A stretch of 64,000 bases of DNA, from NCBI GenBank assembly GCA_038150265.1, contig JAYOTF010000003.1, forward strand, positions 84,546 to 148,545, written 5' to 3'. Positions 1-64,000 of this stretch are shown here, piece after piece; position 1 is the stretch's first letter; each line of letters opens with the position of its first letter. The position numbers and the translations under genes are program-made. The notes under the pieces were generated by a model, which had not been told where the DNA came from, did not search any database, and worked only from the letters and a program-made list of their open reading frames with translations. This DNA is from Deltaproteobacteria bacterium (GTDB lineage Bacteria > SAR324 > NAC60-12).

Positions 1-1680
1 TACCAGGATTCGGTTGCTGAGGAGATGATTCACGTCCTCAACAACGCCGACGTCCGCTTTGCGATCGTCGAGGATCAGGAGCAGGCGGACAAGATGCTTG
101 AGGTCAAGGACCGCTGCCCGCAGCTGGAGTTTGTGGTCTACGAAAACACCCGGGGCATGCGGCACTACGACCAGCCCTTCCTCTTTCAGTTCCAGGACGT
201 CCAGCGCCAGGGTGCCTCCTACCTGCAGGCCCATCCCGATTTTTTTGAGACCGAAGCGGCCAAGGGCTCTGGAGCCGACACCGCCATCTTGCTCTACACC
301 TCCGGAACCACGGGCCTTCCCAAAGGCGTGGCCCTCAGCTTTGACAACCTCATCTTCAGCGGAGAGCTGGGCCGAACGTTCGACTTCCTGACCGATGAGG
401 AAGAGACCCTGGCCTACCTGCCCATGGCATGGGTGGGCGACAACGTCTTCTCGATTGCGCAAGCCTACGTCTGTGGCTTCTGCGTCAATTGCCCAGAGAG
501 TCCGGAAACCGTCCTCACCGACCTCCGTGAAATTGGCCCCACCTACTACTTTGCGCCTCCCTCCGTGTATGAGCGGATGCTCACGCAGGTGATGATCCGG
601 ATCGAAGACGCCGGCAGCACCAAGCGCTGGCTCTTCAACACCTTCATGAAGGTTGCCCGTCGCTGTGGCACCGACATTTTGGATGGGAATCCGGTTTCGC
701 CACTGGACCGACTCCTCTATGCCCTCGGAGAATTGACGATCTACGGCCCGTTGAAAAACGTCCTGGGCCTCAGCCGCATTCGGGTCGCCTACACCGCCGG
801 GGAAGCAATTGGTCCGGAGCTCTTTGCCTTCTTCCGGGCGCTCGGGATCAACATCAAGCAGCTTTACGGGCAAACCGAGGCCTCCGTCTTCATCTGTGCC
901 CAGCCCAACGGGCAGGTCCGCTCCGACACCGTCGGCCCCCCGCTTCCCGGAATTGAGGTCCGCATTGACGACTCCGGAGAGGTCTTCTACCGGAGCCCCG
1001 GAGTCTTTTTGCACTACCACAAGAATCCGGAATCCACGGCCAAGACCAAGAGTCCGGACAACTGGGTCGCCACAGGAGACGCCGGCTTCTTCGACCACGA
1101 GGGGCACCTGAAGATCATCGACCGGGTCAAGGACGTGGGGCGCATGAACGATGGGAGCCTGTTTGCTCCGAAGTACGTGGAAAACAAGCTCAAGTTCTTT
1201 GCCTTCATCAAGCATGCAGTCGTCTTTGGAGACGGACGAGACTACGCCACCGCCTTCATCAACATTGACCTCAATGCGGTGGGCAACTGGGCCGAGCGCA
1301 ACGGTTTGGCCTATTCCGGATACACCGACCTCTCGGCTCGTCAGGAAGTGTACAAGCTCATTCAGGAATGCGTGGAGTCGGTCAACGCTGACCTGGCCCG
1401 AGATGAGAAACTCCGGAGTTCCCAGATTGCACGGTTCCTCTTGCTCCACAAGGAATTGGATGCAGATGACGGAGAGTTGACCCGAACCAGCAAGGTTCGT
1501 CGCAACGTGGTGGATGAACGCTACGGCACCCTGATCAACGCCCTCTACGACCCAGCCCAGAAGCGCTGCCAGATTGAGTCCCTGATCACGTTTGAAGACG
1601 GACGCAAGGGAACCCTCAAGGCCGACCTCTCCATCTGTGACTGCAAGCGCGTCACCGAGCCCCTCAAGGATGCGGCATGA
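1..1680 (+). CDS. Long-chain fatty-acid--CoA ligase (AMP-binding, FadD-like), 5'-truncated by the window edge
   Basis: YTSGTTGLPKG AMP-binding loop, YGQTE and TGDAG motifs. The frame is open back to base 1 (YQDSVAEEM). Confidence 0.9.
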   Translation, partial: YQDSVAEEMIHVLNNADVRFAIVEDQEQADKMLEVKDRCPQLEFVVYENTRGMRHYDQPFLFQFQDVQRQGASYLQAHPDFFETEAAKGSGADTAILLYTSGTTGLPKGVALSFDNLIFSGELGRTFDFLTDEEETLAYLPMAWVGDNVFSIAQAYVCGFCVNCPESPETVLTDLREIGPTYYFAPPSVYERMLTQVMIRIEDAGSTKRWLFNTFMKVARRCGTDILDGNPVSPLDRLLYALGELTIYGPLKNVLGLSRIRVAYTAGEAIGPELFAFFRALGINIKQLYGQTEASVFICAQPNGQVRSDTVGPPLPGIEVRIDDSGEVFYRSPGVFLHYHKNPESTAKTKSPDNWVATGDAGFFDHEGHLKIIDRVKDVGRMNDGSLFAPKYVENKLKFFAFIKHAVVFGDGRDYATAFINIDLNAVGNWAERNGLAYSGYTDLSARQEVYKLIQECVESVNADLARDEKLRSSQIARFLLLHKELDADDGELTRTSKVRRNVVDERYGTLINALYDPAQKRCQIESLITFEDGRKGTLKADLSICDCKRVTEPLKDAA

Positions 1681-2471
1681 GTAACCATCGGCGTGCCATT
1701 GGAGACACGTTGCTGAGCGTGGAACACATCAGCCTCTCCTTCGGAGGAGTGAAGGCGCTCACCGACATCAGCCTCTCTGTTCGCAAGCACGAAATCTTTT
1801 CCATCATTGGCCCGAACGGCGCCGGGAAGACGTCCATGCTCAACGTCATCAACGGCTTCTACCACCCGCAGGAAGGGGCCATCGTCTTCCGGGGCACGCA
1901 CCGCAAGCGCATGCGTCCCCATGAAGCAGCCAAGCAAGGCATCGCCCGGACCTTCCAGAATGTCGCCCTCTTCAAGGGCATGAGCACCCTCGACAACATC
2001 ATGTCCGGACGCCTGCTCAAGATGCACCGCAACATCTTCTGGCAGGCCCTTCACCTGGGACCCGCCCGAGAAGAGGAGCTGGCCCACCGTCGCAAGGTCG
2101 AGGAGATCATCGACTTCCTGGAAATCCAGGCCATCCGCAAGATTCCAGTCGGACGCCTTCCGTATGGGCTGCAGAAACGAGTGGAGTTGGGACGAGCCCT
2201 GGCGATGGAGCCCGACCTGCTGCTGCTGGACGAGCCGATGGCCGGCATGAACCTTGAGGAAAAGCAGGACATGTGTCGCTTCATCCTCGACATCAGCGAA
2301 GAGTACGGAACCACGATGGTGCTCATTGAGCATGACATGGGCGTCGTCATGGACATCTCCGACCGAGTCGCCGTCCTCGATTACGGACGCAAGATCGCTG
2401 ATGGCCCTCCGGACGAAGTCCGCTCCAACCAGGAGGTGATTGATGCTTACCTGGGGGTGAGTCATGACTGA
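1677..2471 (+). CDS. Branched-chain amino acid-type ABC transporter ATP-binding protein (LivG-like)
   Basis: Walker A GPNGAGKT, ARTFQN, LLLLDEP and IEHDM motifs. ATGA overlap with the ligase. Confidence 0.92.
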   Translation: MSNHRRAIGDTLLSVEHISLSFGGVKALTDISLSVRKHEIFSIIGPNGAGKTSMLNVINGFYHPQEGAIVFRGTHRKRMRPHEAAKQGIARTFQNVALFKGMSTLDNIMSGRLLKMHRNIFWQALHLGPAREEELAHRRKVEEIIDFLEIQAIRKIPVGRLPYGLQKRVELGRALAMEPDLLLLDEPMAGMNLEEKQDMCRFILDISEEYGTTMVLIEHDMGVVMDISDRVAVLDYGRKIADGPPDEVRSNQEVIDAYLGVSHD

Positions 2472-2489
2472 GCCCAGGAACGGAGAATT

Positions 2490-3419
2490 ATGGAACTGAT
2501 GTTTTTTTTCGAAACCCTGATCAGTGGCCTCATGGCTGGAGTCATGTACTCCCTGGTCGCTCTCGGTTTCGTGTTGATCTTCAAGGCTTCCGGAGTCTTC
2601 AACTTCTCTCAGGGAGTGCTGTGCCTGTTTGCAGCCCTCGCCCTGTTTGACTTCATTTCAGAAGACGGCTGGGTGTACGCCCTCTTTGGCTTTGCCCTCC
2701 CCGTCTGGCTCGGCATCCTCCTGACCGTTGTGGTGATGATTGGGGTCGCTTGGCTCATTGAACGCCTCGTGCTGCGGCACCTGGTCAACCAGGACCCGAT
2801 CATCCTCTTCATGGCCACGATCGGGCTGGCCTACGTTCTGGAAGGCGCAGGAGACATCCTCTTCGGCTCCGACGTGAAGCCCCTGGACATTGGACTGCCT
2901 CAAGGCGCCTCGGACTACCTACTCGACACCTACGGACTCTACATTGAAAAACTGGAGGTCGTGGCGGCAATCACCGCTGCCGTGCTCGTGGCGGTTCTTG
3001 CGGTCTTCTTCCAGAAGACCCGAATTGGTCGAGCCCTGCGTGCCGTCGCTGACGACCACCAGGCCGCACTTTCCGTGGGCATCTCCCTCAATGCCATCTG
3101 GGTCATCGTCTGGTCGGTGGCCGGCATCGTCGCCCTCGTGGCCGGAATCATGTGGGGGTCGAAGTCCGGGGTTCAGTTTTCCCTTTCGCTGATTGCCCTC
3201 AAGGCCCTTCCGGTCCTGATCCTCGGAGGCTTCACTTCGGTTCCAGGGGCCATCATTGGAGGACTGATCATTGGCGTGGGAGAGAAACTGGCAGAGATCT
3301 ATGCCGGACCGCTGGTCGGCGGAGCCCTGGAGAACTGGTTTGCCTACATGTTGGCATTGGTCTTCCTCCTGTTCCGTCCGCAAGGGCTGTTTGGAGAGCG
3401 CATCATTGAACGGGTCTGA
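2490..3419 (+). CDS. ABC transporter permease (LivH-like)
   Basis: Hydrophobic protein with YSLVALGFVLIFKASGVFNF, GRALRAVA and RPQGLFG. Confidence 0.92.
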   Translation: MELMFFFETLISGLMAGVMYSLVALGFVLIFKASGVFNFSQGVLCLFAALALFDFISEDGWVYALFGFALPVWLGILLTVVVMIGVAWLIERLVLRHLVNQDPIILFMATIGLAYVLEGAGDILFGSDVKPLDIGLPQGASDYLLDTYGLYIEKLEVVAAITAAVLVAVLAVFFQKTRIGRALRAVADDHQAALSVGISLNAIWVIVWSVAGIVALVAGIMWGSKSGVQFSLSLIALKALPVLILGGFTSVPGAIIGGLIIGVGEKLAEIYAGPLVGGALENWFAYMLALVFLLFRPQGLFGERIIERV

Positions 3420-3422
3420 AGC

Positions 3423-4499
3423 ATGATTTATCGAGAGTCTGGACAGTTCAAATCCAGTTACAGCGGCGACCAGGCGATCTTCCCGATCCTTCAGGACCGG
3501 ATCTTTCTGGTGCTGGTCGCCCTGATTGCCGTGGTCGGGATTCCCACCATTGTTGACGACTACTGGGCCAACGCGGTTTTCATTCCCTTGCTCGTCTTCA
3601 CCCTCGCCGCCATTGGCCTCAACATCCTCACCGGATACTGCGGACAGCTGAGCCTCGGCACCGGCGCCTTCATGGCGGTTGGGGCGTACGCGACCTACAA
3701 GCTGATGACGGCTTTTCCGGAGATGAACTTCATCCTCATCGTCATCCTCTCCGGTTTTGTCACAGCAGGAGTGGGGGTCCTCTTTGGGCTGCCCTCTCTG
3801 CGCATCAAGGGGTTCTACCTCGCGGTGGCCACGCTGGCCGCCCAGTTCTTTCTGGTGTGGCTCTTCAACAAGGTCGGGTGGTTCTTCAACTACAACGCAA
3901 CCGGACAGATCAACGCGACCCGCATGCACGTGTTCGGGATCCAGATCACGGGTCCGGAAGCCACACCGGCTGCTCGGTACCTCTTCTGCCTCTTCTTTGC
4001 CATCGTCTTTGCCCTGGTGGCCAAGAACCTGGTCCGCGGGCGCATCGGACGCTCCTGGATGGCCATCCGGGACATGGACATTGCGGCAGAACTGATCGGC
4101 ATCCGCCCCCTGCAGACCAAACTCTCGGCCTTTGCCGTCAGCTCCTTCTACGTGGGCATGGCAGGCTCGCTCTACTTTTCCGTCTGGTTGGGTGCGGCCG
4201 AGGTGACCGAAGCCTTCAGCATCAATCAGTCCTTCTTCGTCCTCTTCATGGTCATCATCGGTGGGCTGGGAACCGTCCTTGGCTCCTTCCTCGGGGCCGC
4301 GTTCATGGTCCTGATGCCAATCTTGCTGAAAAACTTCCTGGTCGATGGCATCGGCGTGGAGGTGGTTACAGCCAAGCACGTCGAGATCATGGTGATGGGC
4401 ATCTTGATTGTCACCTTCCTGATCGTCGAGCCTCACGGACTTGCCCGGCTCTGGCAGATCATGAAAGAAAAGCTCCGCCTCTGGCCCTTTCCCTACTGA
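3423..4499 (+). CDS. ABC transporter permease (LivM-like)
   Basis: GLNILTGYCGQLSLG, GFYLAVATL, GRSWMAIRD and MVIIGGLG motifs. Confidence 0.92.
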   Translation: MIYRESGQFKSSYSGDQAIFPILQDRIFLVLVALIAVVGIPTIVDDYWANAVFIPLLVFTLAAIGLNILTGYCGQLSLGTGAFMAVGAYATYKLMTAFPEMNFILIVILSGFVTAGVGVLFGLPSLRIKGFYLAVATLAAQFFLVWLFNKVGWFFNYNATGQINATRMHVFGIQITGPEATPAARYLFCLFFAIVFALVAKNLVRGRIGRSWMAIRDMDIAAELIGIRPLQTKLSAFAVSSFYVGMAGSLYFSVWLGAAEVTEAFSINQSFFVLFMVIIGGLGTVLGSFLGAAFMVLMPILLKNFLVDGIGVEVVTAKHVEIMVMGILIVTFLIVEPHGLARLWQIMKEKLRLWPFPY

Positions 4500-4542
4500 T
4501 CGGGCCCCAAGCCGAGCGCAACCTTCCTCAGGAGAGAAAACC

Positions 4543-5865
4543 ATGAACCTCAAGCAGCGATTCCTGCGAGCCGCCCTCGCCACGGTTGCTCTGCCGCTGA
4601 CCCTCGTGAGCGCCCACGCCTATGAGCTGGTCGTTCCCAGTCTGGACTACCGGACCGGGCCTTACGCGCCCAACGGCATCCCGGTCGCCAACGGCTTTGC
4701 CGACTACTTCACGCTCCTCAACGAGCGCGACGGTGGCATCAACGGTGTTCCAGTCAAGCTGGTTCCCTGTGAAACCGCCTACAACACCCAGCAGGGGGTG
4801 GAGTGCTATGAAAACACCAAGAACACCGAGCCCTCCGGCGCCCTGGTGTACAACCCCCTCTCCACCGGCATCACCTACCAGCTGATTCCGAAAGCGAGTG
4901 TCGACCAGATCCCGGTCCTTTCCCTGGGCTATGGCCGCACCTCGGCTGCCAACGGGAAGGTCTTCCCCTGGATCTTCAACTTTCCCGGAACCTACTGGGA
5001 TGGCGCTTCCATCTTCATGAAGTACATTGGCGAGAAGGAAGGGGGCATGAGCAACCTCAAGGGCAAGAAGATCGCCCTTGTCTACCACAACTCCGCCTAC
5101 GGAAAAGAGCCGATCCGGACCCTTGAGGCGCTGGCCAGCAAGCATGGCTTTGAGCTGCAATTGCTGCCCGTTGACCACCCAGGTCAGGAGCAAAAAGCCA
5201 CCTGGCTGCAGGTCCGTCGTGGTCGTCCGGACTGGGTCCTGATGTGGGGCTGGGGCGTGATGAACCAGGTCGCCATCAAGGAAGCCGCTTCTGTGCGTTT
5301 CCCGATGGATCGCTTCATCGGCATCTGGTGGTCGGGTTCAGAGAACGACGTGCTGCCCGCTGGAGCTGATGCGGACGGCTACCTCTCCGGAGCCTTCACG
5401 GCACCACGCCGCGACTTCCCGCTCTTTGATGAGATCCGAAAACTCGTTTACGATGCCGGCAAAGGCGCAGGTGAGCGAGACCGCATTGGTGAGGTCCTCT
5501 ACGGACGAGGCGTCCTGCAGGCCGTCTATGTTGCAGAGGCGATCCAAAAGGCCATGGAGATTCATGGCACCAAGGAGATCCGGGGCGTCCACATGCGAGA
5601 CGGTCTGGAGCAACTGACCATCACGGCAGCCCGCTGGAACGAGCTGGGCCTCCCGGGCTTTGCCTCTCCGGTGAACATCTCCTGCTCCAACCACGCAGGT
5701 CCGCGGGAAGCCGCGATTCAGCAGTGGGATGCCAAAGCGCAGCAGTGGAACCTTGTCACCGACTTCATGACACCCGACCTGGCCATCGTGGATCCGTTGA
5801 TTGAACAAGACTCCATGGCGTATGCGAAAGAGAACGGCATCACGCCCAAGAGCAACTGCATGTAA
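4543..5865 (+). CDS. ABC transporter substrate-binding protein (Liv/PBP1 family)
   Basis: Signal peptide ending AHA; YRTGPYA and NERDGGING motifs; GGAG RBS upstream. Confidence 0.9.
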   Translation: MNLKQRFLRAALATVALPLTLVSAHAYELVVPSLDYRTGPYAPNGIPVANGFADYFTLLNERDGGINGVPVKLVPCETAYNTQQGVECYENTKNTEPSGALVYNPLSTGITYQLIPKASVDQIPVLSLGYGRTSAANGKVFPWIFNFPGTYWDGASIFMKYIGEKEGGMSNLKGKKIALVYHNSAYGKEPIRTLEALASKHGFELQLLPVDHPGQEQKATWLQVRRGRPDWVLMWGWGVMNQVAIKEAASVRFPMDRFIGIWWSGSENDVLPAGADADGYLSGAFTAPRRDFPLFDEIRKLVYDAGKGAGERDRIGEVLYGRGVLQAVYVAEAIQKAMEIHGTKEIRGVHMRDGLEQLTITAARWNELGLPGFASPVNISCSNHAGPREAAIQQWDAKAQQWNLVTDFMTPDLAIVDPLIEQDSMAYAKENGITPKSNCM

Positions 5866-5872
5866 CTGAGTC

Positions 5873-5892
5873 AGGGAGCCTTCGGGCTCCCT
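5873..5892 (+). other. Intergenic stem-loop after the SBP gene, probably mRNA-stabilising
   Basis: AGGGAGCC-TTCG-GGCTCCCT perfect hairpin with a cUUCGg loop and no U-tract. Confidence 0.6.
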
Positions 5893-5915
5893 CTCCACTC
5901 CGGAACAAAGAACCC

Positions 5916-6740
5916 ATGAGTGCCGCTCCATCTGCAAGGCCGACCCTGCTGGCGGTCAACAACGTTGAGGTCATCTACAACCACGTCATCCTCGTCCTGA
6001 AGGGAGTCTCCCTGACGGTCAACCAGGGGAGCATTGTGGCACTGTTGGGCGCCAACGGAGCAGGCAAGACCACCACCCTCAAGGCGGTCTCGAACCTCCT
6101 CCGTGCGGAGCGGGGGGAAGTCACCAAGGGCTCCATTGAGTTTGAGGGAAGCCGTGTCGACGCCCTCACTCCCAATGACCTGGTCCGACGGGGCTGCATT
6201 CAGGTCATGGAAGGACGGCACGTCTTCGGACACCTGACCACCGAAGAGAACCTGCTCACCGGCGCCTACACCCGTCGCGACGGACGAGGTGCCATTGCGC
6301 AGGACCTGGAGATGGTCTATGACTACTTTCCCCGCCTGCGGGTGCGTCGCTCGTCTCAGGCGGGTTACACGTCCGGAGGGGAGCAGCAGATGATCGCCAT
6401 CGGACGCGCCCTGATGTCTCGCCCCAAGATGATCCTCCTGGATGAGCCCTCAATGGGTCTGGCGCCTCAGTTGGTGGAAGAGATTTTTGAGATCGTCAAG
6501 AGCCTCAACCAAAAGGAAGGAGTCAGCTTCCTGCTGGCCGAGCAGAACACCAACATCGCCCTGCGGTATTCCACCTATGGCTACATTCTTGAAAATGGTC
6601 GGGTGGTGATGGATGGAGAGGCTTCCCACCTTCGGGAAAATGATGACGTCCAGGAGTTTTACCTGGGAGTGAGCGGCGACGGTCGCAAGAGCTTCCGGGA
6701 TGTAAAGCACTACCGCCGCCGCAAACGCTGGCTCGGTTAA
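5916..6740 (+). CDS. ABC transporter ATP-binding protein (LivF-like)
   Basis: GANGAGKTT, SGGEQQM, LLDEPSMGL and EQN motifs. Confidence 0.92.
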   Translation: MSAAPSARPTLLAVNNVEVIYNHVILVLKGVSLTVNQGSIVALLGANGAGKTTTLKAVSNLLRAERGEVTKGSIEFEGSRVDALTPNDLVRRGCIQVMEGRHVFGHLTTEENLLTGAYTRRDGRGAIAQDLEMVYDYFPRLRVRRSSQAGYTSGGEQQMIAIGRALMSRPKMILLDEPSMGLAPQLVEEIFEIVKSLNQKEGVSFLLAEQNTNIALRYSTYGYILENGRVVMDGEASHLRENDDVQEFYLGVSGDGRKSFRDVKHYRRRKRWLG

Positions 6741-7498: not shown

Positions 7499-7503
7499 AG
7501 CAG

Positions 7504-8268: not shown

Positions 8269-8280
8269 AAAATCGATGAT

Positions 8281-11696: not shown

Positions 11697-11697
11697 G

Positions 11698-14512: not shown

Positions 14513-14697
14513 CGGGCTTCCTTGCGAAAGAAGGTCAACAGTGCGGGCATCATGAGCAGCATCAGCGTCATGTTGAAGGCGTGAGGGAGCCTGAGCATTC
14601 GGGGTAGGCGAGCCGTCCCCACGTCCGGAGATGGTGCCGAAAGATACCGGATTTGGGCGGGAATTGGTAGGGGTTTTCTGAAAAATCAGAAAAACTT

Positions 14698-25345: not shown

Positions 25346-28030
25346 TTAGAGCTTGGCCGCTTCTTCGACGCGCTCAAAGACCTCCACCACGTCTCCCACT
25401 TCGATCTCCGGGAAGTCCATGACAATGCCGCACTCGTAGTTCTGAGCAACCTCACGGACGTCATCCTTGAAGCGCTTCAGCGAGGCAATGTGTCCATTGT
25501 AGACCACCTTGTTGTTCCGGAGCACACGCGCCAGCCCGTTACGGGTGATCTTGCCATCGGTGACCAGGCCCCCAAAGACCATGCCCTGCTTGGCTGAGCT
25601 GAAGATGGCCCGGATCTCACAGTGCCCAATGACCTCTTCGCGGATCTCGGGCGCCAGCAGGCCTTCCATCGCAGCCCGGACATCGTCAATCGCATCATAG
25701 ATGACCGTGTAGAGCCGGACATCGACGCCTTCGCGAGACTTCGCTTCCTTACCCTTTGCATCCAGGTTAACGTTGAAGCCGATGATGATGGCATCCGACG
25801 CCGACGCCAGGGTCACATCCGTCTCGGTCACGTTCCCGACTCCGGAGTGAATGAAGCGCACGGTGACCTTCTCGGTACCCAGCTGAGCAATGGCATTCTG
25901 GAGTGCTTCAGCAGAGCCCTGCACGTCGGCCTTGACGACCACCTTCAGCTCCAGCTGCTCGTTCTCTCCCATTTGGGTAAACAGGTTCTCCAGGGTCGTC
26001 TTCTGCTGAGCCGAAATGGCCTGCTCACGCTGACGCTGGAGCCGCTCATCCGCCAGCTGGCGCGCGGCCTTTTCGTCTGCCAGAACCACAAACTGTTCGC
26101 CCACTTCCGGAACATCATTGAGCCCCGAGATTTCTGCAGGCAGAGCAGGGGTGACCTCCTTGACGGATTTGCCGCGGTCGTTGAACATGGCCCGGACCCG
26201 TCCGTAGGTGCTGCCCACCACAAAGAAGTCGCCCACCTTGAGGGTGCCCCGCTGCACCAGCACGGTTGCCACCGCGCCCTGGCCGCGGCTGATGCGGGAC
26301 TCGATGATTGTGCCGCGCGCGTTGCCCTGCGCCGTGGACGTCAGTTCCAGCACCTCCGCCTGCAACTGGATCATCTCCAGCAGGTTATCGATGCCCGTCC
26401 CGGCCTTGGCGGAAACGTCCACAAAGATTGTGCTGCCGCCGTACTCTTCTGGAACCAGCTCATGCGAGAGCAGTTCCTGACGGATGCGGTTCGGGTCAGC
26501 TTCCGGACGGTCCACCTTGTTGACGGCCACAATGATCGGAACATCAGCGGCCTTGGCGTGGTTGATGGCCTCAATCGTCTGCGGCTGCACGCGGTCATCG
26601 GCAGCCACCACGAGGACCACCAGGTCGGTCACCGTTGCTCCCCGTGCTCGCATGGCAGAGAACGCCTGGTGCCCGGGTGTGTCCAGGAAGGTGATGTTGA
26701 AGCCGCCGGCCTCAACGTGATACGCCCCAATGTGCTGGGTGATGCCACCGGCCTCGCGGTCGGCAATCTGCGTGGAGCGGATGGTATCCAGAAGCGAGGT
26801 CTTCCCGTGGTCGACGTGTCCCATGATGGTCACGATGGGAGCCCGGGACTCCATCTCTTCTTCTTCTGGTGTGTCTTCCTTCACCAGGTCTTCGAGCTCA
26901 AAGGCTTCAAACTCGACATCAATGCCAAACTCAGCAGCCAGCAGCACAGCGGTTTCCCCCGGAATGTTCTGGTTGACCGTGGCCATCACGCCCATGAGCA
27001 TGAGCTTCTTGATGAGTTCTGTTGCCTTGACTCCCAGCAGGCCCGCCAGCTCCGACAGCGTGACCTGGTTGCCAATCTTGATGCTCTTGCGACGGGGGTT
27101 GAAGGTGTGCTTGGGCGCCTCATCGACATCAATGCCTCCACGCCGAGCCCTGGAGCGGCCTCGGTCCTTGCGACGGCGACGGCCATCTTCGTCACTGGAG
27201 TAGTAGTCCCGGAACTGACGCTTCTTGTCGCCGGTTTTCTTGTTCGCGGCGGACTTGACGTCCTCTTCGCCGTCAGCGTCCTGCTTCTCTCGGTCAGGCT
27301 TGCCTGCTTTACGGTCCGGACGAGCGGCCGGCTTGGCGTCTCGCTTGCTTTTCGAATCGGCCACCGGTTCCGGTTTGGCAGCAGGGGCCTCGGCTGGCTT
27401 GGCCTTCTTCGGCTCAGGCTGGGGGGCTTCTTGAGCGGGCGCCGGAGCCTCGGCTTTTGCCGGTTCCGCAGCCTGTGCTTTCGGAGCAGGTTCTGGCGTT
27501 TCCTTCGGGGCAGCAGGGGCTTCCGGTTCCGGAGGAGCCTCAGCAGCAGCGGGCGCTTCCGGCTCGGCAGCCGGATCCTTGACCTTGACCTTGACCGGGG
27601 CTTCTTCCGCCGGAGCGGCTTCCGGAGCCTCAGCTTCCTGAGCCTCGGAGTCCTCAGGAGACGCTTCGGCCTCCGGATCGACGCTCTTGCGGCGGATGCG
27701 GCGGGGGCGCTCCTCTTCGTGCTCCTGGACGTTCTTGGCCGTAACCGTGATGATCCGTGGCTTCTCCTCGTCTCCTTCTTCCGGAGGCGCTTCTGGAGCC
27801 GGCTCGCTGGTACGGCGGGTGGAGATGACGCGACGGGCAGTCCGTACTTTCGTCGGGGAAGTCTTCGGCTCCGGAGCAGCCATCAGCTTACGGGCGAGGA
27901 CCACTTGCTCATCGGTCAGATGATCAAAGGGTTTCTCAACGGCAATGCCGCCTTTACGGAGCTGCTGGACCATCTGCTTGGCTGGCAGATTGAACTCTTT
28001 GGCCAGCTCAAACACTCGAATTTCCGACAT
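25346..28030 (-). CDS. infB: Translation initiation factor IF-2
   Basis: [24 protein letters not shown] and NKVD, with a long Pro/Ala/Glu-rich N-terminal region. Confidence 0.98.
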
Positions 28031-32294: not shown

Positions 32295-32404
32295 CGTTCA
32301 CCCTAGAACGCTATTTGCATTCCGGAGTCTTCTGAACTGAAATCAGGGATTCCGGAACCTGTTCCCCATCCCCGAACCAGCATCACAACTGAGGAGAACA
32401 TCCG

Positions 32405-34805: not shown

Positions 34806-34951
34806 CTTCCGGAATCGGGCTGTCTTCCCGCTTGTAGCTTTTCCTGAACCACGAGATGCTGAGCGCTTCACCGTCCCGCGTGGCAGGCCCGCCTTGGTCG
34901 CTGGGCTCCGCCTCTCTGTTGGCCACCTGATGAACATGATAAAGGAGTAGC

Positions 34952-41476: not shown

Positions 41477-43093
41477 TCAGAGCTCTTTGGCCTGAGAGCG
41501 GAGTTCGTTCTTCCGGACCTTGCCGGTGGACGTTTTTGGCAACTCACTGAACACCACCGTCCGAGGCACCTTGTAGCCGGCGAGCTTGGAGCGGCAGAAG
41601 GCGATGACGTCCTCCGTCGTCAGGCTGGCGCCCTCCCGGAGGGTCACAAACGCACAGGGGTGCTCCCCCCACTTCTCGTCCGGACGCGCCACCACCGCGG
41701 CTTCCAGGATGTCCGGGTGCTGGTACAGCGCATTCTCGACCTCCACCGAGCTGATGTTTTCCCCTCCGGAGATGATGATGTCCTTGGAGCGGTCCTTCAG
41801 TTCAATGTAGCCATCGGGGTGCAACACGCCGAGGTCTCCAGAGTGGAACCACCCCCCACGGAAGGCCTCTGCGGTCGCCTCCGGATTCTTCAGGTAGCCC
41901 TTCATGACGACATTCCCCTGAAAGAGCACCTCGCCCATCGTCTCGCCATCAGCCGGAACCGGCTCCAGGCTCTCCGGATCGGCCACCGTCAGCCCCTCCA
42001 GAACGTGGTAGCGCACCCCCTGCCGGCCCTTCTTGAGGGCCTGCTCCTCCGGATTCAACGCATTCCAGGAATCTTGCCAGTCGCACACCACCGACGGGCC
42101 ATAGACCTCAGTCAGGCCATACACGTGGGTCACCTCAAAGCCAATGGACTGCATCCGGGCAATCACGGCAGGCGGTGGTGGCGCAGCGGCCGTCATGATC
42201 TTCACCGGCCCGGGCAGCTCGCGGACGTCTGACTCCGGAGCATTGCCAATCATGCCCATGACGATCGGAGCCCCGCAAAGGTGCGTCACCTGATGGTCGG
42301 CAATGGCGTGGTAAATGTTGGCGGCCGTTACCTTTCGCAGGCACACGTTGGTGCCAGCCAGCGCGGCCATGGTCCAGGGAAAGCACCACCCGTTGCAGTG
42401 AAACATGGGAAGCGTCCAGAGGTACACCGGGTGGTGCGGCAGCTCCCACGAAAGGACGTTGCCCATCGCCAGCAGGTAAGCCCCACGGCCATGATAGACC
42501 ACCCCCTTGGGACGCCCAGTGGTTCCGGAGGTGTAGTTCAGCGATACCGCCTGCCAGTCGTCTTCAGGCCAAATGGGGGCAAACTCGGGGTCGCCCTCGG
42601 CCAGCAGGTCCTCGTAGTTGAGGCTTCCGAGCAGCTCTCCGGATTCAGCCTGCGGGTCATCAATGTCCACCACCAGCAGTTTCTGAGACGTCAGGGCCAG
42701 GGCTTCCTTGATGACCGGGGAAAATTCCTTGTCGGTGATGAGGATCTTCGTCTCGCCGTGCTCAAAGATGTAGGCCAGGGTGTCGGCATCCAGGCGGATG
42801 TTGAGGGCGTTGAGCACCCCGCCCGCCATCTGCACCCCAAAGTGCGCCTCATACAGCTCCGGAATGTTCGGCGCCATCACCGCAACGGTGTCCCCCCGCC
42901 CCACGCCCTGCTTCTGCAGCGCCGATGCTAACCGGCGGCACCGGGTGTAGGTCTCGGCCCAGGTGCGCTGCACCGGTCCATGAATGACCGCCAGCCGGTC
43001 CGGATGCACGGCAGCCGCACGCTGGATGAAGCTGATGGGGGAAAGCGGGGCGTAGTTCGCCGAGGTTTGAGGCAGTTGTTCGTAGGCATTCAT
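41477..43093 (-). CDS. Acyl-CoA synthetase (medium-chain, DmdB/AAE7-like)
   Basis: ANYAPLSPISF, YTSGTTGRPKG, LPMFHCNGW, YGLTE and PKTSTGK. Confidence 0.9.
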   Translation of the reverse strand: MNAYEQLPQTSANYAPLSPISFIQRAAAVHPDRLAVIHGPVQRTWAETYTRCRRLASALQKQGVGRGDTVAVMAPNIPELYEAHFGVQMAGGVLNALNIRLDADTLAYIFEHGETKILITDKEFSPVIKEALALTSQKLLVVDIDDPQAESGELLGSLNYEDLLAEGDPEFAPIWPEDDWQAVSLNYTSGTTGRPKGVVYHGRGAYLLAMGNVLSWELPHHPVYLWTLPMFHCNGWCFPWTMAALAGTNVCLRKVTAANIYHAIADHQVTHLCGAPIVMGMIGNAPESDVRELPGPVKIMTAAAPPPPAVIARMQSIGFEVTHVYGLTEVYGPSVVCDWQDSWNALNPEEQALKKGRQGVRYHVLEGLTVADPESLEPVPADGETMGEVLFQGNVVMKGYLKNPEATAEAFRGGWFHSGDLGVLHPDGYIELKDRSKDIIISGGENISSVEVENALYQHPDILEAAVVARPDEKWGEHPCAFVTLREGASLTTEDVIAFCRSKLAGYKVPRTVVFSELPKTSTGKVRKNELRSQAKEL

Positions 43094-43239
43094 GGGCGAC
43101 TCTTGGCAAACAGGCAGAGCAGGAAGCAACCTGAAGTGGCTGGTTCAGGAGAAAACCGGACCTCATCATAACCGCACCGTCGGTTTGGAGCAATGCGGAA
43201 ACCCCACTCTTCCGAGCGCGTTTTTTCGGGAAAAGCGGC

Positions 43240-49561: not shown

Positions 49562-49630
49562 CGACGGCCGGCGCTTCCTCGGGAGCGCCTCCGGAAGCAG
49601 CCCCCCTTCACTCCAACCGCATCACTCCGC

Positions 49631-50440
49631 ATGCCCACGCCCCTTCTTCAGTCCATCCACCTCTACCCCATCAAGTCCTGCGCCGGGGTCTCCGTCTCCG
49701 AAGCAGAACTCACTCCCCGGGGCCTCCGGCACGACCGACGCTGGATGATTGTGGATGGCCAGGGCCACTTCCTCACCCAACGCAGCCTCGCCCAGCTCGC
49801 CCTCATTGACGTCCAGTGGGAGGGAAATCAGCTGCTCCTGCAGGTTCCGGAGCAGCCGCACCTCCGGTTGCCGCTGGAGCCTGCAGACGGCGAGTGGCGC
49901 ACCGTCACCGTCTGGGAAGATCAGGTGCCGGCGCTGGAGCCCAGCCCTGAAGCAAACCAGGCCCTGCAGGCGTTTCTGGGCCGACCCTGCGCCCTGGTCT
50001 TTCAGCCAGAAAGCACCCACCGTCCAGTGGATCCGGACTATGGGCAGCCCGAGGACCTTGTCTCGTTTGCCGATGGATTCCCCCTCTTGCTGGCCTCCGA
50101 AGCCTCTCTGGAAGAGCTGAACCGACGGCTGGAAACTCCGGTCACCATGAAGCGCTTCCGTCCCAACCTCGTGGTCTCCGGAACCCTGCCTCATGCAGAA
50201 GACCATTGGGCTCGGCTGCGGCTGGGCACCGCCACCTTCCGGAGCGTCAAGCCCTGCGCGCGCTGTGTGATGACAACAGTCGACCCGGAAGCAGGGGCGC
50301 GGAGCGGAAACGAGCCGCTCACCACACTGGCGACCTACCGCAAGTTTGGAGGCAAGGTCCTGTTTGGCCAGAACCTCATTCCGGATGTTTCGGCAAACGG
50401 AGCTCGCCTGCGGGTGGGAGATGCGGTGGAGGTGCTGTAA
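49631..50440 (+). CDS. MOSC domain protein (YcbX/mARC-like)
   Basis: YPIKSC, DRRWM, FADGFP, RFRPN and catalytic C(A)RC. Confidence 0.9.
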   Translation: MPTPLLQSIHLYPIKSCAGVSVSEAELTPRGLRHDRRWMIVDGQGHFLTQRSLAQLALIDVQWEGNQLLLQVPEQPHLRLPLEPADGEWRTVTVWEDQVPALEPSPEANQALQAFLGRPCALVFQPESTHRPVDPDYGQPEDLVSFADGFPLLLASEASLEELNRRLETPVTMKRFRPNLVVSGTLPHAEDHWARLRLGTATFRSVKPCARCVMTTVDPEAGARSGNEPLTTLATYRKFGGKVLFGQNLIPDVSANGARLRVGDAVEVL

Positions 50441-51895
50441 ATGACCCGAGTGGTCATGTTTCAGGGCACCGGGTCTGGAGTCGGCAAGAGCCTGCTTGCA
50501 GCAGGTTTCTGCCGCTGGCTCCGGAACCAGGGCTTTCGGGTCCGGCCCTTCAAGGCACAGAACATGGCGCTCAACTCTGGTGTCACTCCAGACGGCAAGG
50601 AGATCGGACGCGCCCAGATTCTTCAGGCAGAGGCGTGCGGGGTTGATCCGGATGTCCGCATGAACCCGATCCTGCTCAAGCCTCAGGGTCCGGGGGTTTC
50701 GCAGCTCATCCGCCTTGGGGAAGTGGCCGGGGTCTGCTCTGCTCGGGACTACTACACGCTGTTTCCAGAAAACTTTGCCACCGTCCAGGCCGCCTTCGCC
50801 TCCCTGTGCGAGGAAGCCGACTGGGTGGTCATTGAAGGAGCAGGGAGCCCGGCCGAGATCAACCTGCAGGCCACCGACATCGTCAACATGCGCATGGCCG
50901 AGCATGCTCAGGCCCGGGTCCTTGTGGTGGGAGACATCGACCGTGGTGGCGTGTTTGCCTGGATGAAGGGCACCTACGACCTGGTTCAGGATCACCACCG
51001 GCCCCTCATTGCCGGGTTCCTGATCAACAAGTTCCGGGGCGATGTCACGCTGCTGCAGCCGGGCATTGAGCAGTTTGCCCAGTGGGTGCCGGCTCCGGTG
51101 CTGGGCGTCATCCCGTGGCGCGAATTTGCGTTGGAAGACGAGGACTCCCAGAACGTGCGCTCTCGCCTCGTTGCTGAGGCACGCCTCGAGGTCGCTGTCA
51201 TCCGGACCCCGTACCTTTCCAACTTCTCTGACTTCGACCCCCTCAAGCAGGTTCCGGGACTTTCCCTGCGCTTCACCAAGCACGTGGACGACCTGGCTCA
51301 GGCGCAGCTCATCATTCTCCCTGGCAGCAAGAACACGGCACACGACCTGCGCTTTCTGCAGGAATCCGGACTTGCGGCCGAGCTGCAGCGGCTGCAGGGA
51401 AAGACGTGGATTCTGGGAATTTGCGGAGGGTACCAGATGCTGGGAGCCGCCGTGACCGACCCCAGCGGCGTGGAGTCCGGAGGCGCGCTGACCGGTCTGG
51501 GGCTCCTTCCGGTTCAGACAGAGATGGGGCTGCAGAAGACGTTAACCCGCCGGCACTACTCTGGCACCGGCTGGCTCAGTGGGCTCCGTTGGCCAGCCTA
51601 TGAAATCCACCACGGACGGACCACCCTCACGGCAGAGGCGCCCGACCTCGACTTCTTTGTTGCGGAAGCTCCGGACCTGGGGATGCGAGATGCAACCCGG
51701 AAGGTCATGGGCACGTACCTGCACGGCTTTTTGGACACGCCAGAGGTGCTGGAGCGCCTTCTTGCCTGCCTCGATCCGGAACCCTTTGAGCTGCCTCCCG
51801 CCTTTGCCGACCTGAAGCAGCAGGAGCTGGATGCGCTGGCGACCTTCCTTGAGGAACACTGCGACGTCCCTCAGGTGCTGGGGCTGTCGCCTTAG
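50441..51895 (+). CDS. cobQ: Cobyric acid synthase
   Basis: GTGSGVGKS, PFKAQNM, EGAGSPAEINL, DIDRGG, GICGGYQMLG and GTYLHG. Confidence 0.93.
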   Translation: MTRVVMFQGTGSGVGKSLLAAGFCRWLRNQGFRVRPFKAQNMALNSGVTPDGKEIGRAQILQAEACGVDPDVRMNPILLKPQGPGVSQLIRLGEVAGVCSARDYYTLFPENFATVQAAFASLCEEADWVVIEGAGSPAEINLQATDIVNMRMAEHAQARVLVVGDIDRGGVFAWMKGTYDLVQDHHRPLIAGFLINKFRGDVTLLQPGIEQFAQWVPAPVLGVIPWREFALEDEDSQNVRSRLVAEARLEVAVIRTPYLSNFSDFDPLKQVPGLSLRFTKHVDDLAQAQLIILPGSKNTAHDLRFLQESGLAAELQRLQGKTWILGICGGYQMLGAAVTDPSGVESGGALTGLGLLPVQTEMGLQKTLTRRHYSGTGWLSGLRWPAYEIHHGRTTLTAEAPDLDFFVAEAPDLGMRDATRKVMGTYLHGFLDTPEVLERLLACLDPEPFELPPAFADLKQQELDALATFLEEHCDVPQVLGLSP

Positions 51896-53301: not shown

Positions 53302-55794
53302 ATGAATCCCTCGATCGGGAAGCAGCTCTTCAACTCCACACTGGTCCACCAGTCTGCGGTCCACTTGCTTCCCCAACCCCTTCAGGACGCTGCAGAAGAT
53401 GCCCTGGAACTGATTCCAGGTGCCGTCCACGACCAGATCACCGCCCTCCGGTTCAGTCATGATGCCCAAACGGTCACCGCTCTGAGCTACCCCACGTTTT
53501 GGGACGACCCCTTTCCGGAGCTGGCCGCCTCCTGGAAGGTTTCTCTGGAAACCGAAATCGTCAAGCACCGGACCTTTGTTCACTCTTTGAATCCGCCTAT
53601 TCTTTTTCAAAAGGAGCAGCTTCTGCCTCCGGATCATCCCAAGGTGTCCGCGTTGCAGAAGGTTTCCAAGGCCGCAGAAAAGCTGGGGCTGCTGGATCAG
53701 CCGCTGCAGCAGGGGTTCCGGCAAACGTGGCAACGCGCGTTGCGCACCGCCGGGTACCGCCTGGAAAAAGGAAAGTTTGTGGCCACAGATGCTCCGGCCC
53801 CCCAGGCGCTTCCCGACCCCGGTGCCTCGGAGTGGCCCCAGCTCTCGCCCCCCTTCCAGGCGCTTCTGCGCTTCGGATTTCTGGAAGGAGACTTCACCTG
53901 CTTTGACTATGGCTGTGGCGATGGGTCGGACCTGAAGGCCCTCCAGGAACTCGGGGTTGCCGCAGAAGGTTGGGACCCCTCGACAGCGCCTGACGCCTCT
54001 CTCAAGGAGGCCGACATCGTCAACCTCGGCTACGTCCTCAACACGATTGAGGATCACGAGGTCCGGACGGAGGCCCTGCAAACGGCTTACGCGCTGGCGC
54101 AGGAGCTGCTGGTCGTGTCGGTTTACCTCTTCAACCAGAATGTTTCGGGGGAGCCCTTCCGCGATGGATTGCTGCTGGAAGACCACACCTTTCAGAAGTA
54201 CTACACGCCTCAGTTGCTCAGTGACCTGATTGAGGAGCAGCTTGGAGAAGAGTCGGTGGCTGTGGCGCCCGGGGTGTTCTTTGTCTTCAAGGACAAGGGC
54301 CTTCAGCAGCGCTTCCTGCTGGAACGCAGCCGGGCCTTCACCTCTCTCAGCCGCCTCATTCACCAGTACACCCGCCGGCCGGGAGCCCTCAGTGCCACCA
54401 TTCCGGCGCAGCTGGTTCCGCTGCTGCAGGTGAGCTGGGAGCTCGGACGCGAGCCTCATCCTGAAGAGGCTCCGGAGCTGGTGGACCCGCTGACCGAAGC
54501 CTTTGGCTCCTTCCGCAAGGCCCTGAAGGCGCTGGAAGAGCATCAGCCGGCTGAGCTGTTTCATGCCGCTGAGGCCCTCCGTCGAGACGACCTGAAGGTG
54601 TACCTGGCGCTCGAGCTGTTCAAGAAACGCCGGCCCTACCATGAGCTGGATCCCGGGCTGCAGCGCGACATCAAGCACTTCTTCAAGAGCTACACGCAGG
54701 CGCAGCAGGATGCCAAGGACCTGCTCTTTCAGATTGGCGACAACGTCCTCCTCTCTGAAACCTGCGCTGAGGTAGAATCCCGCGGACTCGGGTGGATGGA
54801 TGACGACTCCCTCCAGCTGCACTCCAGCCTGGTGGAGCAGCTGCCGCCTCTGCTGCGGGTGTACGTGGGGTGTGCCAGCCACCTGGTGGGAGACGTCACC
54901 AGCGCCGACCTCGTCAAGATCCACATCCGGTCCGGAAAACTCAGCCTGATGCGCTTTGACGATTTCTTCGGGAACGCCCAGCCCAAGATGCTGGAGCGCG
55001 TCAAGGTGGACCTCCGGAAGCAAGAGGTGCAGCTCTTTGACTACTCCGCCCCCTACGAGCCGCCCTACCTCTACCTCAAGTCGCGCTTCATGAACGAGGA
55101 GATGCCAGAGTATGGCGAGCAGGTGGCCTTTGAGGAGCAGCTGGAGGCCCTGGAGCTGTTTGACTTCAGCGGCTACGGCCCGAATGTCTCCGTGTTTGAC
55201 CACCGCCTGAGTCAGGCCCGCTGGGAGCTGCAGGGACGCCAGCTCATCCGCGCCACCACCCTTCCGGACCTCAACGCCTTCTGCGGAGAAAACTTCCGCT
55301 ACCGCGACTTCCTCGAGTGTGGCCCCGCGCTGGAGCACGAGGGGGACAACGTTCCCATGCACCCAGACACCTACACGGCTCTCTATGACCTGGCGACCTC
55401 GCTGCTGGACCCGGTCATTGACTACTTTGGCGAGATCATCCTGACCTTCGGGTTCTGCTCAGCGGCACTGGCAAAGCAGCTTCCTGACGCTCAGCCCAAA
55501 ACCGACCAGCACATTGGGCATGAAAGCAACCGGGCCGGCAACCCGGTCTGTGCCCGAGGTGGCATCGCCGTGGACTTCCTTGTCGAAGACGAAGACATGC
55601 TGGAAGTCGCCCAGTGGATCGTGGAAGAGCGCCTGCCCTTCGACCGCCTGATCCTCTTTGCCTCCGACCGCCCCCTGCACCTGAGCGTGGGCCCCAGGCA
55701 GGCCCGGGAGGTCCAGGTCAGCGCCTCCGGAACCCTGCATTCCCTCTCGGCTGAAGCTCTGATGGAGCTGGACACCGTGCAGGCACCTTCCTGA
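53302..55794 (+). CDS. DNA phosphorothioation-associated putative methyltransferase (TIGR04096-like) fused to a C-terminal peptidase M15A-like domain
   Basis: SAM motif FDYGCGDG, VNLGYVLN, TFQKYY, DLVKIH..SGKLS and NPPIL. C-terminus has LDPVIDYFG, DQH, AVDF and LHLS. Confidence 0.8.
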   Translation: MNPSIGKQLFNSTLVHQSAVHLLPQPLQDAAEDALELIPGAVHDQITALRFSHDAQTVTALSYPTFWDDPFPELAASWKVSLETEIVKHRTFVHSLNPPILFQKEQLLPPDHPKVSALQKVSKAAEKLGLLDQPLQQGFRQTWQRALRTAGYRLEKGKFVATDAPAPQALPDPGASEWPQLSPPFQALLRFGFLEGDFTCFDYGCGDGSDLKALQELGVAAEGWDPSTAPDASLKEADIVNLGYVLNTIEDHEVRTEALQTAYALAQELLVVSVYLFNQNVSGEPFRDGLLLEDHTFQKYYTPQLLSDLIEEQLGEESVAVAPGVFFVFKDKGLQQRFLLERSRAFTSLSRLIHQYTRRPGALSATIPAQLVPLLQVSWELGREPHPEEAPELVDPLTEAFGSFRKALKALEEHQPAELFHAAEALRRDDLKVYLALELFKKRRPYHELDPGLQRDIKHFFKSYTQAQQDAKDLLFQIGDNVLLSETCAEVESRGLGWMDDDSLQLHSSLVEQLPPLLRVYVGCASHLVGDVTSADLVKIHIRSGKLSLMRFDDFFGNAQPKMLERVKVDLRKQEVQLFDYSAPYEPPYLYLKSRFMNEEMPEYGEQVAFEEQLEALELFDFSGYGPNVSVFDHRLSQARWELQGRQLIRATTLPDLNAFCGENFRYRDFLECGPALEHEGDNVPMHPDTYTALYDLATSLLDPVIDYFGEIILTFGFCSAALAKQLPDAQPKTDQHIGHESNRAGNPVCARGGIAVDFLVEDEDMLEVAQWIVEERLPFDRLILFASDRPLHLSVGPRQAREVQVSASGTLHSLSAEALMELDTVQAPS

Positions 55795-56797: not shown

Positions 56798-56803
56798 CGT
56801 TTG

Positions 56804-57853: not shown

Positions 57854-57856
57854 CTC

Positions 57857-58630: not shown

Positions 58631-58660
58631 ATCCTCTTCACCCTCTCATCAGGAAGAAGC

Positions 58661-59380: not shown

Positions 59381-59384
59381 GGGC

Positions 59385-59885: not shown

Positions 59886-59969
59886 GATTTTTTCTGGGAA
59901 ATGGGGGGCAAAAACGCGGGAGTGCACTACCCTACTCAACTTTTTCCCCGGGGTAAAGGGGAAAGCGCT

Positions 59970-60587: not shown

Positions 60588-60606
60588 AGCGTTTATCAGA
60601 ACAGGG

Positions 60607-63810: not shown

Positions 63811-63860
63811 CATGATCACCTATCAGGGTTTGAGGGACAGTCCAGGATCCAAAACAGGGC

Positions 63861-63890
63861 ATCTTACCACAGAACCCCTTCAGGCGTCAC
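63861..63890 (-). promoter_or_regulatory. Putative extended -10 promoter for argD
   Basis: GTGACG-N18-TAAGAT with TG upstream of the -10. Confidence 0.4.
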
Positions 63891-64000
63891 CACTGAATCC
63901 TACTGACAGGGCAATCGAGGGGGGTCGTAAAGAAGGCCCAGAGCGGGGTGGGGACGTTTGCCCACTGGTACAATCACGAGCACCAGCACAGCGCCCTCAA

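Follow-up and report, generated by a model that had tools for sequence, protein, structure and literature searches.

What makes a stretch of ordinary chromosome carry the same six-base palindrome every few hundred nucleotides? The question is raised by a 64,000-nucleotide stretch of DNA (the window) from a bacterium of the SAR324 phylum, positions 84546-148545 of contig C3 in a 3.39-Mb genome (G000; 87 contigs, 61.2% GC, 97.8% complete), for which a first-pass annotation had proposed that TCCGGA is iterated throughout in the manner of HIP1, the highly iterated palindrome (HIP) of cyanobacteria. Indeed, the window holds 195 TCCGGA (3.05 per kb) against 24.8 ± 5.0 expected, and none of 100 dinucleotide-preserving shuffles reached that number (maximum 39). 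All 18 sites that the annotation had counted by eye in bases 1-6400 are genuine (an extra one at 5226 makes 19), and the density of about 3 per kb that it gave for two other parts is borne out by 29 sites in 7-15 kb and 8 in 53.3-55.8 kb. The copies, moreover, are spaced at the helical repeat of DNA, in a register that differs between lineages. Below, G, g and f followed by a number denote genomes, genera and families of the SAR324 phylum.

Abundance of TCCGGA

TCCGGA ranks first among all hexamers of G000, with 9,711 copies (2.86 per kb), and is found at 2.4-3.8 per kb on all 46 contigs longer than 20 kb. Its spread over genes is near-binomial (variance 0.0195 vs 0.0170). None of the 1,261 genes tested in G000 was an outlier at p < 0.001, and no TCCGGA-free islands beyond chance were found there (3 gaps of at least 3 kb vs 1.8 expected). 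Positions outside the hexamer show a weak base bias. The ratio of observed to expected copies (O/E) is 8.7, 7.6, 3.95, 2.39 and 1.22 under Markov models of order 0, 1, 2, 3 and 4. The order-4 value, a check that the first-pass annotation had proposed, is thus above 1, but by little, because the pentamers TCCGG and CCGGA themselves hold most of the excess.

The low order-4 ratio, and the fact that TCC, CCG and CGG are the preferred codons within their families, would suit an origin of TCCGGA as a side effect of base composition, of codon usage or of a dipeptide preference. We therefore compared G000, in which 2,477 long non-overlapping open reading frames (ORFs) served as gene proxies instead of gene-finder calls, with 20 shuffles that permute synonymous codons within each gene and so keep both the protein and the codon usage of the gene. 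TCCGGA was observed 8,604 times vs 2,182 ± 40 in the shuffles (O/E 3.94, z 160), far from the value near 1 that codon usage alone would give, and it was enriched in each of the three codon frames (3.78, 3.47 and 4.48). In 338 genes confirmed by cross-genus orthologues the excess over the synonymous shuffle was 4.12-fold (z 56). The runner-up word was the overlapping TTCCGG (2.66), and the other CCGG hexamers were not co-enriched (GCCGGC 0.62, CCCGGG 0.88, ACCGGT 0.88), so the equal enrichment that the first-pass annotation had named as a warning sign was not seen. The third codon position before CCG-GA is T in 43% of cases vs 19% genome-wide, and 8,602 of the 22,584 positions of G000 at which the peptide permits the word (38%) are occupied by it.

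The excess extends to non-ORF DNA, where TCCGGA is again the top hexamer (1,102 copies, 2.3 per kb, O/E 6.1 at order 1). The claim that the word occurs between genes held for positions 14624, 32321 and 32351, all outside ORF proxies, whereas the site at 5899 lies inside a 199-amino-acid ORF proxy without a Pfam match, the status of which is uncertain. The three codon frames that had been assigned to the sites at 301, 501 and 596 hold for the ORF in which these sites lie.

A non-enriched genome of a sister genus, G047 (57% GC; 193 kb examined), has only 22 TCCGGA. Of the orthologous positions at which both genomes permit the word, 2.0% are occupied in G047 vs 40.7% in G000 (n = 204), about 20-fold fewer at the same peptide positions, and G021, a relative with 43% GC, still carries 1.5 per kb. 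TCCGGA abundance is not a coding by-product: both codon shuffles and the orthologue occupancy of G047 refute composition, codon usage or dipeptide preference as its source, the phased spacing described below speaks against it too, and we leave that explanation next to no chance. In the same 56 orthologues, Pro-Asp/Glu dipeptides number 227 (O/E 1.44) in G000 vs 176 (1.16) in G047, a small sample, which hints that protein sequence too is nudged by TCCGGA pressure.

Helical phasing of the copies

We analysed pair distances of TCCGGA in G000 up to 1.2 kb against a null in which occupancy was re-dealt among the peptide-permitted positions of each gene and frame (200 replicates). The residual spectrum has a single peak, at 10.5 bp, with a power of 46.7; the null maximum at that period was 6.9, and the 95th percentile of null maxima at any period was 7.9. 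Pair-distance maxima fall at about 9, 19, 31, 42, 52, 63, 73, 84, 95, 105 and 114 bp, and pairs 11-17 bp apart are avoided (0.24-0.45 of null). The phasing is strongest at 30-200 bp, weak up to 600 bp and then absent. It is visible at distances d with d mod 3 = 2, and is not clear at d mod 3 = 1. Among the 120 commonest hexamers it is unique to TCCGGA (40.6; next 8.4; median 2.8). No periodicity of A/T content was found around TCCGGA sites, and thus the pattern is not a diffuse curvature code.

A small separate excess lies within the avoided short range, at exactly 9-10 bp (TCCGGA-N3/4-TCCGGA), in G000, G002 and G051; it is absent in G021.

Register differences between lineages

To compare the rotational register of different genomes, we counted pairs in two distance windows (41-43 and 46-48 bp), each of which includes one multiple of three, and computed spectra (Table 1).

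Table 1. Register of TCCGGA pairs (whole-genome counts) and spectra of their spacing
Genome or genus	Pairs at d = 41-43	Pairs at d = 46-48	DNA used for spectrum	Period (bp)	Power	Offset
G000	129	52	whole genome	10.50	51.1	-0.7 bp
G002	67	39	398 kb	10.65	10.5	equals that of G000 at 10.5 bp
g11, 18 genomes summed	512	160
G021 (g11)			393 kb	10.45	23.1	about 0
G005 (g4)	36	7
G050 (g19)	7	47
G051 (g19)	10	68	854 kb	10.50	12.9	+5.4 bp, half a turn
G052 (g19)	0	33
g19, sum	17	148
G001 (congener of G000)	22	57	496 kb		6.6

The register is lineage-specific: copies keep to the same face of the helix in g1, g11 and G005 of g4, and to opposite faces in g19. G021 has 6.4 times the random number of pairs at 21 bp, and none at 16-18, 26-27 and 46-48 bp; in G051, pairs at 31-33 bp fall to 0.07 of random. 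Random relocation of the sites reached the observed power in 0 of 300 replicates for each of G002, G021 and G051, and G021 (power 9.8) and G051 (11.6) also passed the peptide-permitted null. The spacing peaks take in distances that are not multiples of three, and a periodicity at the level of the protein is excluded because orthologous proteomes carry opposite registers. For G001 the window counts suggest an anti-phase register, but its spectrum is weak and we do not claim one.

The register could, in principle, reside in the DNA itself. TCCGGA may be anisotropically bendable or kinked, and selection might set the bends to add (in-phase) or to cancel (anti-phase), so that the word would stand in, in GC-rich form, for phased A-tracts in compacting the chromosome or managing supercoils. 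The period equals the B-DNA repeat in four genomes of 43-61% GC, the effect fades past about 200-400 bp, the distance over which torsion stays coherent, and in-phase and anti-phase are the two natural extremes for bends. The share of phased pairs that lie inside ORFs (0.88-0.91) matches that of all sites (0.90), so that the pairs are not operators. Such mechanics, however, leave unexplained the roughly 20-fold greater use of the word than in the sister genus, the lack of phasing of other words, the missing A/T periodicity and the opposite solutions of close lineages. We consider selection on bending quite unlikely to be the explanation, and a role as a substitute for A-tracts equally so.

Half-sites and the CCGG core

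The CCGG core is enriched as well, at 8.4 per kb in G051 vs 2.9 per kb in G047 at equal GC, and enriched genomes have T as the base 5' of CCGG in 44-52% of cases, vs 24% in G047. The ratio of observed TCCGGA to that expected from independent flanks is close to one (1.22 in G000, 1.13 in G002, 1.07 in G001, 1.00 in G051 and 1.12 in G021), and coupling of the two flanks is weak (odds ratio 2.0 in G000). Judged by composition, then, each strand seems to carry a T-CCGG unit. One-letter variants of the hexamer have O/E of 0.94-1.56 when they differ at the outer positions and of 0.61-1.33 when they differ in the core (G000).

Phasing, in contrast, follows the full palindrome. In G000, G051 and G021, respectively, the 10.5-bp power was 51, 13 and 23 for hexamer-hexamer pairs (relative amplitude 0.17, 0.21 and 0.57) and 10, 19 and 10 for pairs of a hexamer and a half-site (0.04, 0.14 and 0.23), with the offset unchanged; no 10.5-bp peak was found in these genomes for half-half pairs (power at most 2.5) or for the remaining CCGG classes (at most 4.1). 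Overall, classes that include a full hexamer span 9.7-51.1, and the others 0.2-4.1. This gradation is what a dimer would give if its occupancy rose with the number of good half-sites. A 10.5-bp register that is limited to full hexamers, graded and shifted by half a turn between lineages calls for an agent sensitive to both palindrome halves and to the helix face. The independent flanks favour an agent acting on each half, and the abundance could arise from selection or from a strand-wise drive.

Maintenance and turnover of sites

We aligned the codons of 207 orthologue pairs between G000 and G002, which share 84% amino-acid identity; 1,441 positions are permitted in both. G002 has a site at 56% of the G000 sites vs 22% of the G000 non-sites, and in 15 of the 15 classes with enough data a codon was more likely to be identical inside TCCGGA than outside it (for example CTT, 0.71 vs 0.37, and CCG, 0.70 vs 0.51). 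Between G000 and G001 the site was shared in 51% vs 29%. Across the larger distance to G051 (g19; 51 pairs, 66% identity) the figures were 41% vs 33% (odds ratio 1.4, p 0.20, n = 264), i.e. positions are nearly independent, and hence density is kept rather than place. TCCGGA sites are actively maintained, yet their positions turn over.

Methyltransferases and repair

The first-pass annotation had suggested a CCGG/TCCGGA methyltransferase with biased mismatch repair as the generator of the motif, and had proposed a search for the corresponding genes. A drive of this HIP1-like kind would have an atypical methyltransferase act at CCGG or TCCGGA, and biased short-patch or mismatch repair turn the flanks of CCGG to T...A on each strand. 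Several of the above results suit it: the flanks of CCGG are nearly independent (1.00-1.22), density is kept rather than position, the spread over genes is near-binomial, and one-letter variants lean to the outer positions as those of HIP1 do in the part of Elhai 2015 (PMC4390886) available to us.

The gene content of G000 does not support this proposal. We found no match to the C5 methyltransferase family (PF00145) in G000, where the control was positive in 9 of 14 reference genomes, and no intact C5 methyltransferase gene in 20 genomes of the three most enriched genera, g1, g11 and g19 (three fragments). Vsr (PF03852) likewise gave no match in G000; it was above cut-off in 6 of the 45 genomes of the family, none of them in g1 (0 of 3) or in g11 (no intact copy and one sub-threshold fragment in the 18 genomes searched), and was absent in two of three g19 genomes. 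MutH was not found in G000. The classical route through a C5 methylase and Vsr is thus absent from nearly all genomes of these three genera. The products that deamination would leave, TCTGGA/TCCAGA, are not depleted (O/E 1.25 in G000), and we rejected a T:G repair feed that consumes neighbour words, the depletion signature of which was not seen.

A motif screen for [DNS]PP[YFWH] returned 34 ORFs in G000, of which 19 were sent to Pfam. Two were DNA-methyltransferase-like, both with SPPY, and the remaining ORFs were set aside as rRNA or protein methyltransferases or unrelated enzymes. One of the two, an N4/N6 methyltransferase on contig C45 (Table 2), is full-length just in G000 and G001; being strain-specific, it was rejected as the cause, and its locus is probably a strain-specific defence island. 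The other, an orphan circularly permuted enzyme on contig C51 (Table 2), is a single-copy core gene throughout f1 and f2 and is absent from f3-f7. Its conservation within the order would fit a HIP1-like drive. Its SPPY region aligns weakly to solved DNA cytosine-N4 methyltransferases, its neighbours are conserved within a genus only, and an AlphaFold model from a four-row alignment is unusable (predicted local distance difference test score, pLDDT, 41). Of 18 non-enriched f2 genomes, however, 16 have the gene, as does the non-enriched g2, and 10 of 10 enriched f7 genomes lack it, and its distant full-length homologues sit in TCCGGA-poor DNA. As its presence does not track enrichment, it too was rejected; no methyltransferase gene that tracks TCCGGA enrichment was found among the genomes searched.

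A HIP1-like drive also does not predict the hexamer-specific 10.5-bp phasing or its half-turn change of register. We therefore regard it as unlikely; the corollary that individual sites bring no benefit, with the register a secondary limit on which full palindromes are tolerated, we hold to be just as unlikely.

Distribution among relatives

We surveyed 45 genomes from 12 genera of the family, and 79 genomes of the phylum that were at least 70% complete, using the count of AGGCCT as a built-in control word. Relative to this control, TCCGGA is enriched 14-30-fold in g19, mostly 6-32-fold in g11 (1.6-fold in three incomplete genomes), 3.9-5.9-fold in g1 (2.2-2.9 per kb), 3-8-fold in g4, g6 and g3, and 1.8-2.6-fold in g10 and g7; it stands at about 1-fold in g2 (9 genomes), g5, g8 and g9. 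The GC content of enriched genomes ranges from 43% (G021, 1.54 per kb) to 61%. The sister family f2 has no enrichment (0.13-2-fold). In f7, the genera g33-g36 are enriched 2.5-8-fold, and five other genera are nearly without the word (TCCGGA vs AGGCCT: 15 vs 1,435 in G084, 25 vs 1,728 in G081 and 31 vs 1,584 in G080). A full-length C5 methyltransferase is present in five of six purged f7 genomes, and the purged lineages look like cases of restriction-type avoidance, or of methylation-driven decay, of TCCGGA/CCGG. Enriched, neutral and purged lineages within one phylum make the trait suitable for phylogenetic profiling of the genes responsible.

Near-purged genomes are G078 and G080-G084 in f7, together with G066, G067, G015, G017 and G020.

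Could the word be a label of self DNA? As a fallback, the first-pass annotation had offered a binding or uptake signal. Uptake, or self-recognition, would work by molecular drive: fragments rich in the word are taken up or spared, and replace alleles that lack it. The even, genome-wide distribution that includes core genes, the lineage 'dialects' and the fast turnover fit such a signal, ComEC is present, and the purging sister lineages suggest that word-directed nucleases circulate in the phylum. The gene for the uptake channel ComEC, however, is found in 12 of 12 genera of the family, enriched or not; a hexamer offers little specificity; and we found no helical phasing or half-turn registers described for uptake signals in the literature searched. 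Of the two parts of the fallback, we hold the uptake half to be improbable; the binding half fits better, with copies set at the helical repeat, which a bias of mutation or repair alone does not predict.

TCCGGA-rich DNA also occurs among viral contigs of IMG/VR: L249, L266, L252, L309, L240, L242 and L268 have 36-64% GC and 1.7-2.8 TCCGGA per kb, with AGGCCT nearly absent. For 17 of the 18 TCCGGA-richest viral contigs we detected no similarity to the SAR324 DNA examined. When these contigs are pooled, one tandem repeat dominates the spacing, and the pattern used to search for them adds a bias. Contig L261 (23-325) carries a tandem array of units of about 81 bp, each with several TCCGGA at multiples of 9 bp.

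A candidate reader of TCCGGA

Taken together, the data lead us tentatively, and short of thinking it probable, to TCCGGA as the word that an abundant DNA-binding factor with two-fold symmetry (a dimer) would recognise in this SAR324 family; that a protein reads the word, that it is a dimer and what it is for are parts of the model that we infer. The factor could be a protein that structures or marks the chromosome. Binding energy would come from each half-site (T-CC / GG-A); weak genome-wide selection, or a drive through the same factor, would hold density high wherever proteins permit; and factors on neighbouring full sites would interact via the DNA helix, fixing the rotational register within about 200 bp. 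It is a fair possibility, though not one on which we would insist, that a single agent of this kind (dimeric, with additive half-site energy and interacting neighbours) explains all observations. Any reader must sense the face of the helix, tell the hexamer from half-sites, and differ between g11/g1 and g19.

Several points weigh against a dimeric reader. No protein that reads TCCGGA was found. G000 has no match to a histone fold (three ordinary HU/IHF genes are present), nor to the folds of CCGG-family endonucleases (Cfr10I/Bse634I and NgoMIV; PF07832, PF09015), for which the controls were silent in all reference genomes. Strand-by-strand mutation or repair would be the simpler source of almost independent flanks and of a CCGG core that is itself about 3-fold enriched at equal GC; such a process may make the abundance while something else shapes the spacing, and the intrinsic mechanics of TCCGGA could give the register without a protein. 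Sites in G000 are not clustered overall (8,819 pairs lie within 400 bp vs 8,751 in the null) and form no operator-like arrays (9 runs of at least four close sites vs 5.3 ± 2.4 expected), so a search for arrays as the flag of an autoregulated reader came to nothing in this genome. The periodicity of G001 is weak, its power being reached by 6 of 300 null replicates. ORF proxies stand in for gene models and at least one locus was mis-called antisense, and the assemblies are of the metagenome-assembled type, in which binning by composition may have removed atypical islands.

A bolder form of the dimeric-reader model is sequence-directed chromatin, which we regard as doubtful yet worth stating. A dimeric protein would sit on TCCGGA about every 350 bp, essential genes included, and neighbouring units would touch across one to several helical turns. 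The geometry of the oligomer would be flipped by half a turn between genera, and thousands of synonymous sites, and some amino-acid sites, would have been rewritten to fit the protein lattice. If this were true, the purged sister lineages would be targets or owners of nucleases directed against the mark.

Comparison with known systems

For some thirty years, highly iterated palindromes have posed an open problem, and an essentially cyanobacterial one. HIP1 is reportedly linked to transformation in a 2024 preprint. The comparison with HIP1 (GCGATCGC) drawn by the first-pass annotation holds for the phenomenon: both words are GC-rich palindromes whose counts greatly exceed expectation, in every frame as well as in non-coding DNA, both are kept beyond codon conservation, with selection acting on the distribution and not on single sites (as for alternate highly iterated palindromes), and both show an outer-position bias of one-letter variants and patchy loss within a clade. 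A link of HIP1 to transformation is also made in the accessible part of a 2026 Genome Biology and Evolution paper (PMC13756078). According to the sections available of Elhai 2015 (PMC4390886), HIPs accompany a cognate methyltransferase and one-letter deviations are biased to the first and last positions; for TCCGGA no cognate methyltransferase was found. As far as the available text of Xu et al. 2018 (PMC5861425) goes, HIP1 copies have a periodicity of 18-94 kb and are conserved beyond codon conservation; TCCGGA, by contrast, has a period of 10.5 bp with a lineage-specific rotational register. The octamer HIP1 occurs at about 1 per kb in cyanobacteria, the hexamer TCCGGA at about 3 per kb in SAR324. 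The word 'helical' does not occur in the accessible text of either article, and a spacing lock of 10.5 bp is not described for HIP1 there; in SAR324 the register even differs between sister genera that share orthologues. A marine lineage that is uncultured and found worldwide thus has a HIP-type phenomenon too, its word being shorter and three times as dense.

DNA uptake sequences (DUS, Neisseriaceae) and uptake signal sequences (USS, Pasteurellaceae) are asymmetric words of 9-12 nt. They resemble TCCGGA in having about one or more copies per kb, dispersal in core genes, lineage dialects and a possible drive; they differ in that the literature searched gave no helical phasing between their copies, and in that ComEC does not track TCCGGA. 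The Dam word GATC, like TCCGGA, is a short palindrome that is read genome-wide for a chromosome-wide, not regulatory, function, and SeqA binds pairs of GATC sites on the same helix face. GATC, however, is not known to be hyper-abundant and needs adenine methylation, and MutH, its other reader, is absent from G000. With Dcm/Vsr (CCWGG and CTAG of Escherichia coli) TCCGGA shares the notion that repair bias at a methylated palindrome alters oligonucleotide frequencies, and CTAG is rare in G000 too; the strongly enriched genomes, however, lack a C5 methyltransferase and Vsr (one of three g19 genomes has Vsr), and precursor words are not depleted. Phased A-tracts and the 10-11-bp AA-TT periodicity also follow the helical repeat, there ascribed to curvature and packaging, but the periodicity reported here belongs to one hexamer, with no A/T periodicity and no other abundant hexamer involved. 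In our literature search, largely outside subscription journals, we found no TCCGGA hyper-abundance in bacteria, no SAR324 methylome and no helically phased iterated palindrome.

TCCGGA pressure determines which synonymous codon is used at over 8,000 positions of G000 and seems to increase the count of Pro-Asp/Glu dipeptides, which is relevant to analyses of codon usage and selection, and to composition-based binning, in SAR324 genomes that carry the word.

Other features of the window and genome

The window is ordinary core genome, with rimP-nusA-infB-truB-pnp, gltA, glnA, fliM, ABC transporters and sensor kinases, and each of its 42 ORF proxies has at least one TCCGGA. Features are collected in Table 2. 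Some of the long ORF proxies without a Pfam match may be antisense artefacts of high GC.

Table 2. Sites and genes of the window (coordinates of the window) and methyltransferase loci of G000 (contig coordinates)
Feature	Position	Strand	Remarks
TCCGGA in three codon frames of one ORF	301..601	+	301 TCC-GGA, 501 xxT-CCG-GAx, 596 xTC-CGG-Axx
ORF covering 301, 501 and 596	-281 to 1680	+	ORF proxy
Long ORF proxy	2919-4583	-	554 amino acids; no Pfam match at E <= 1e-5
TCCGGA, non-coding	14624..14629		287-bp gap 14513-14799 upstream of a solute-binding protein gene
infB (IF-2), essential conserved gene	25346..28030	-	10 TCCGGA, 3.7 per kb; IF-2 and GTP_EFTU domains
Two TCCGGA 30 bp apart, non-coding	32321..32356		starts 32321 and 32351; 110-bp spacer 32295-32404 between citrate synthase and fliM
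Long ORF proxy	33477-34985	-	502 amino acids; no Pfam match at E <= 1e-5
Two adjacent hybrid sensor kinases	36538-40130	+	receiver domains first; the second also with GAF and Hpt
Acyl-CoA synthetase-type gene	41477..43129	-	11 sites, 6.7 per kb; top local density in the window
Long ORF proxy	49622-51343	-	573 amino acids; no Pfam match at E <= 1e-5
Long ORF proxy	53302-55794	+	830 amino acids; no Pfam match at E <= 1e-5
Retron-type reverse transcriptase (RVT_1), then SPPY N4/N6 methyltransferase and an ORF without family	C45:1438-4562 (L001:35-3159)		methyltransferase 258 amino acids, ORF 311 amino acids
Orphan circularly permuted SPPY methyltransferase	C51:248-1387 (L002)		motif I region N-terminal; SPPY at residue 241

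Among tetranucleotides, CTAG is very rare in G000 (574 sites; O/E 0.05 at order 0 and 0.26 at order 2), and TATA and ATAT are likewise strongly under-represented.

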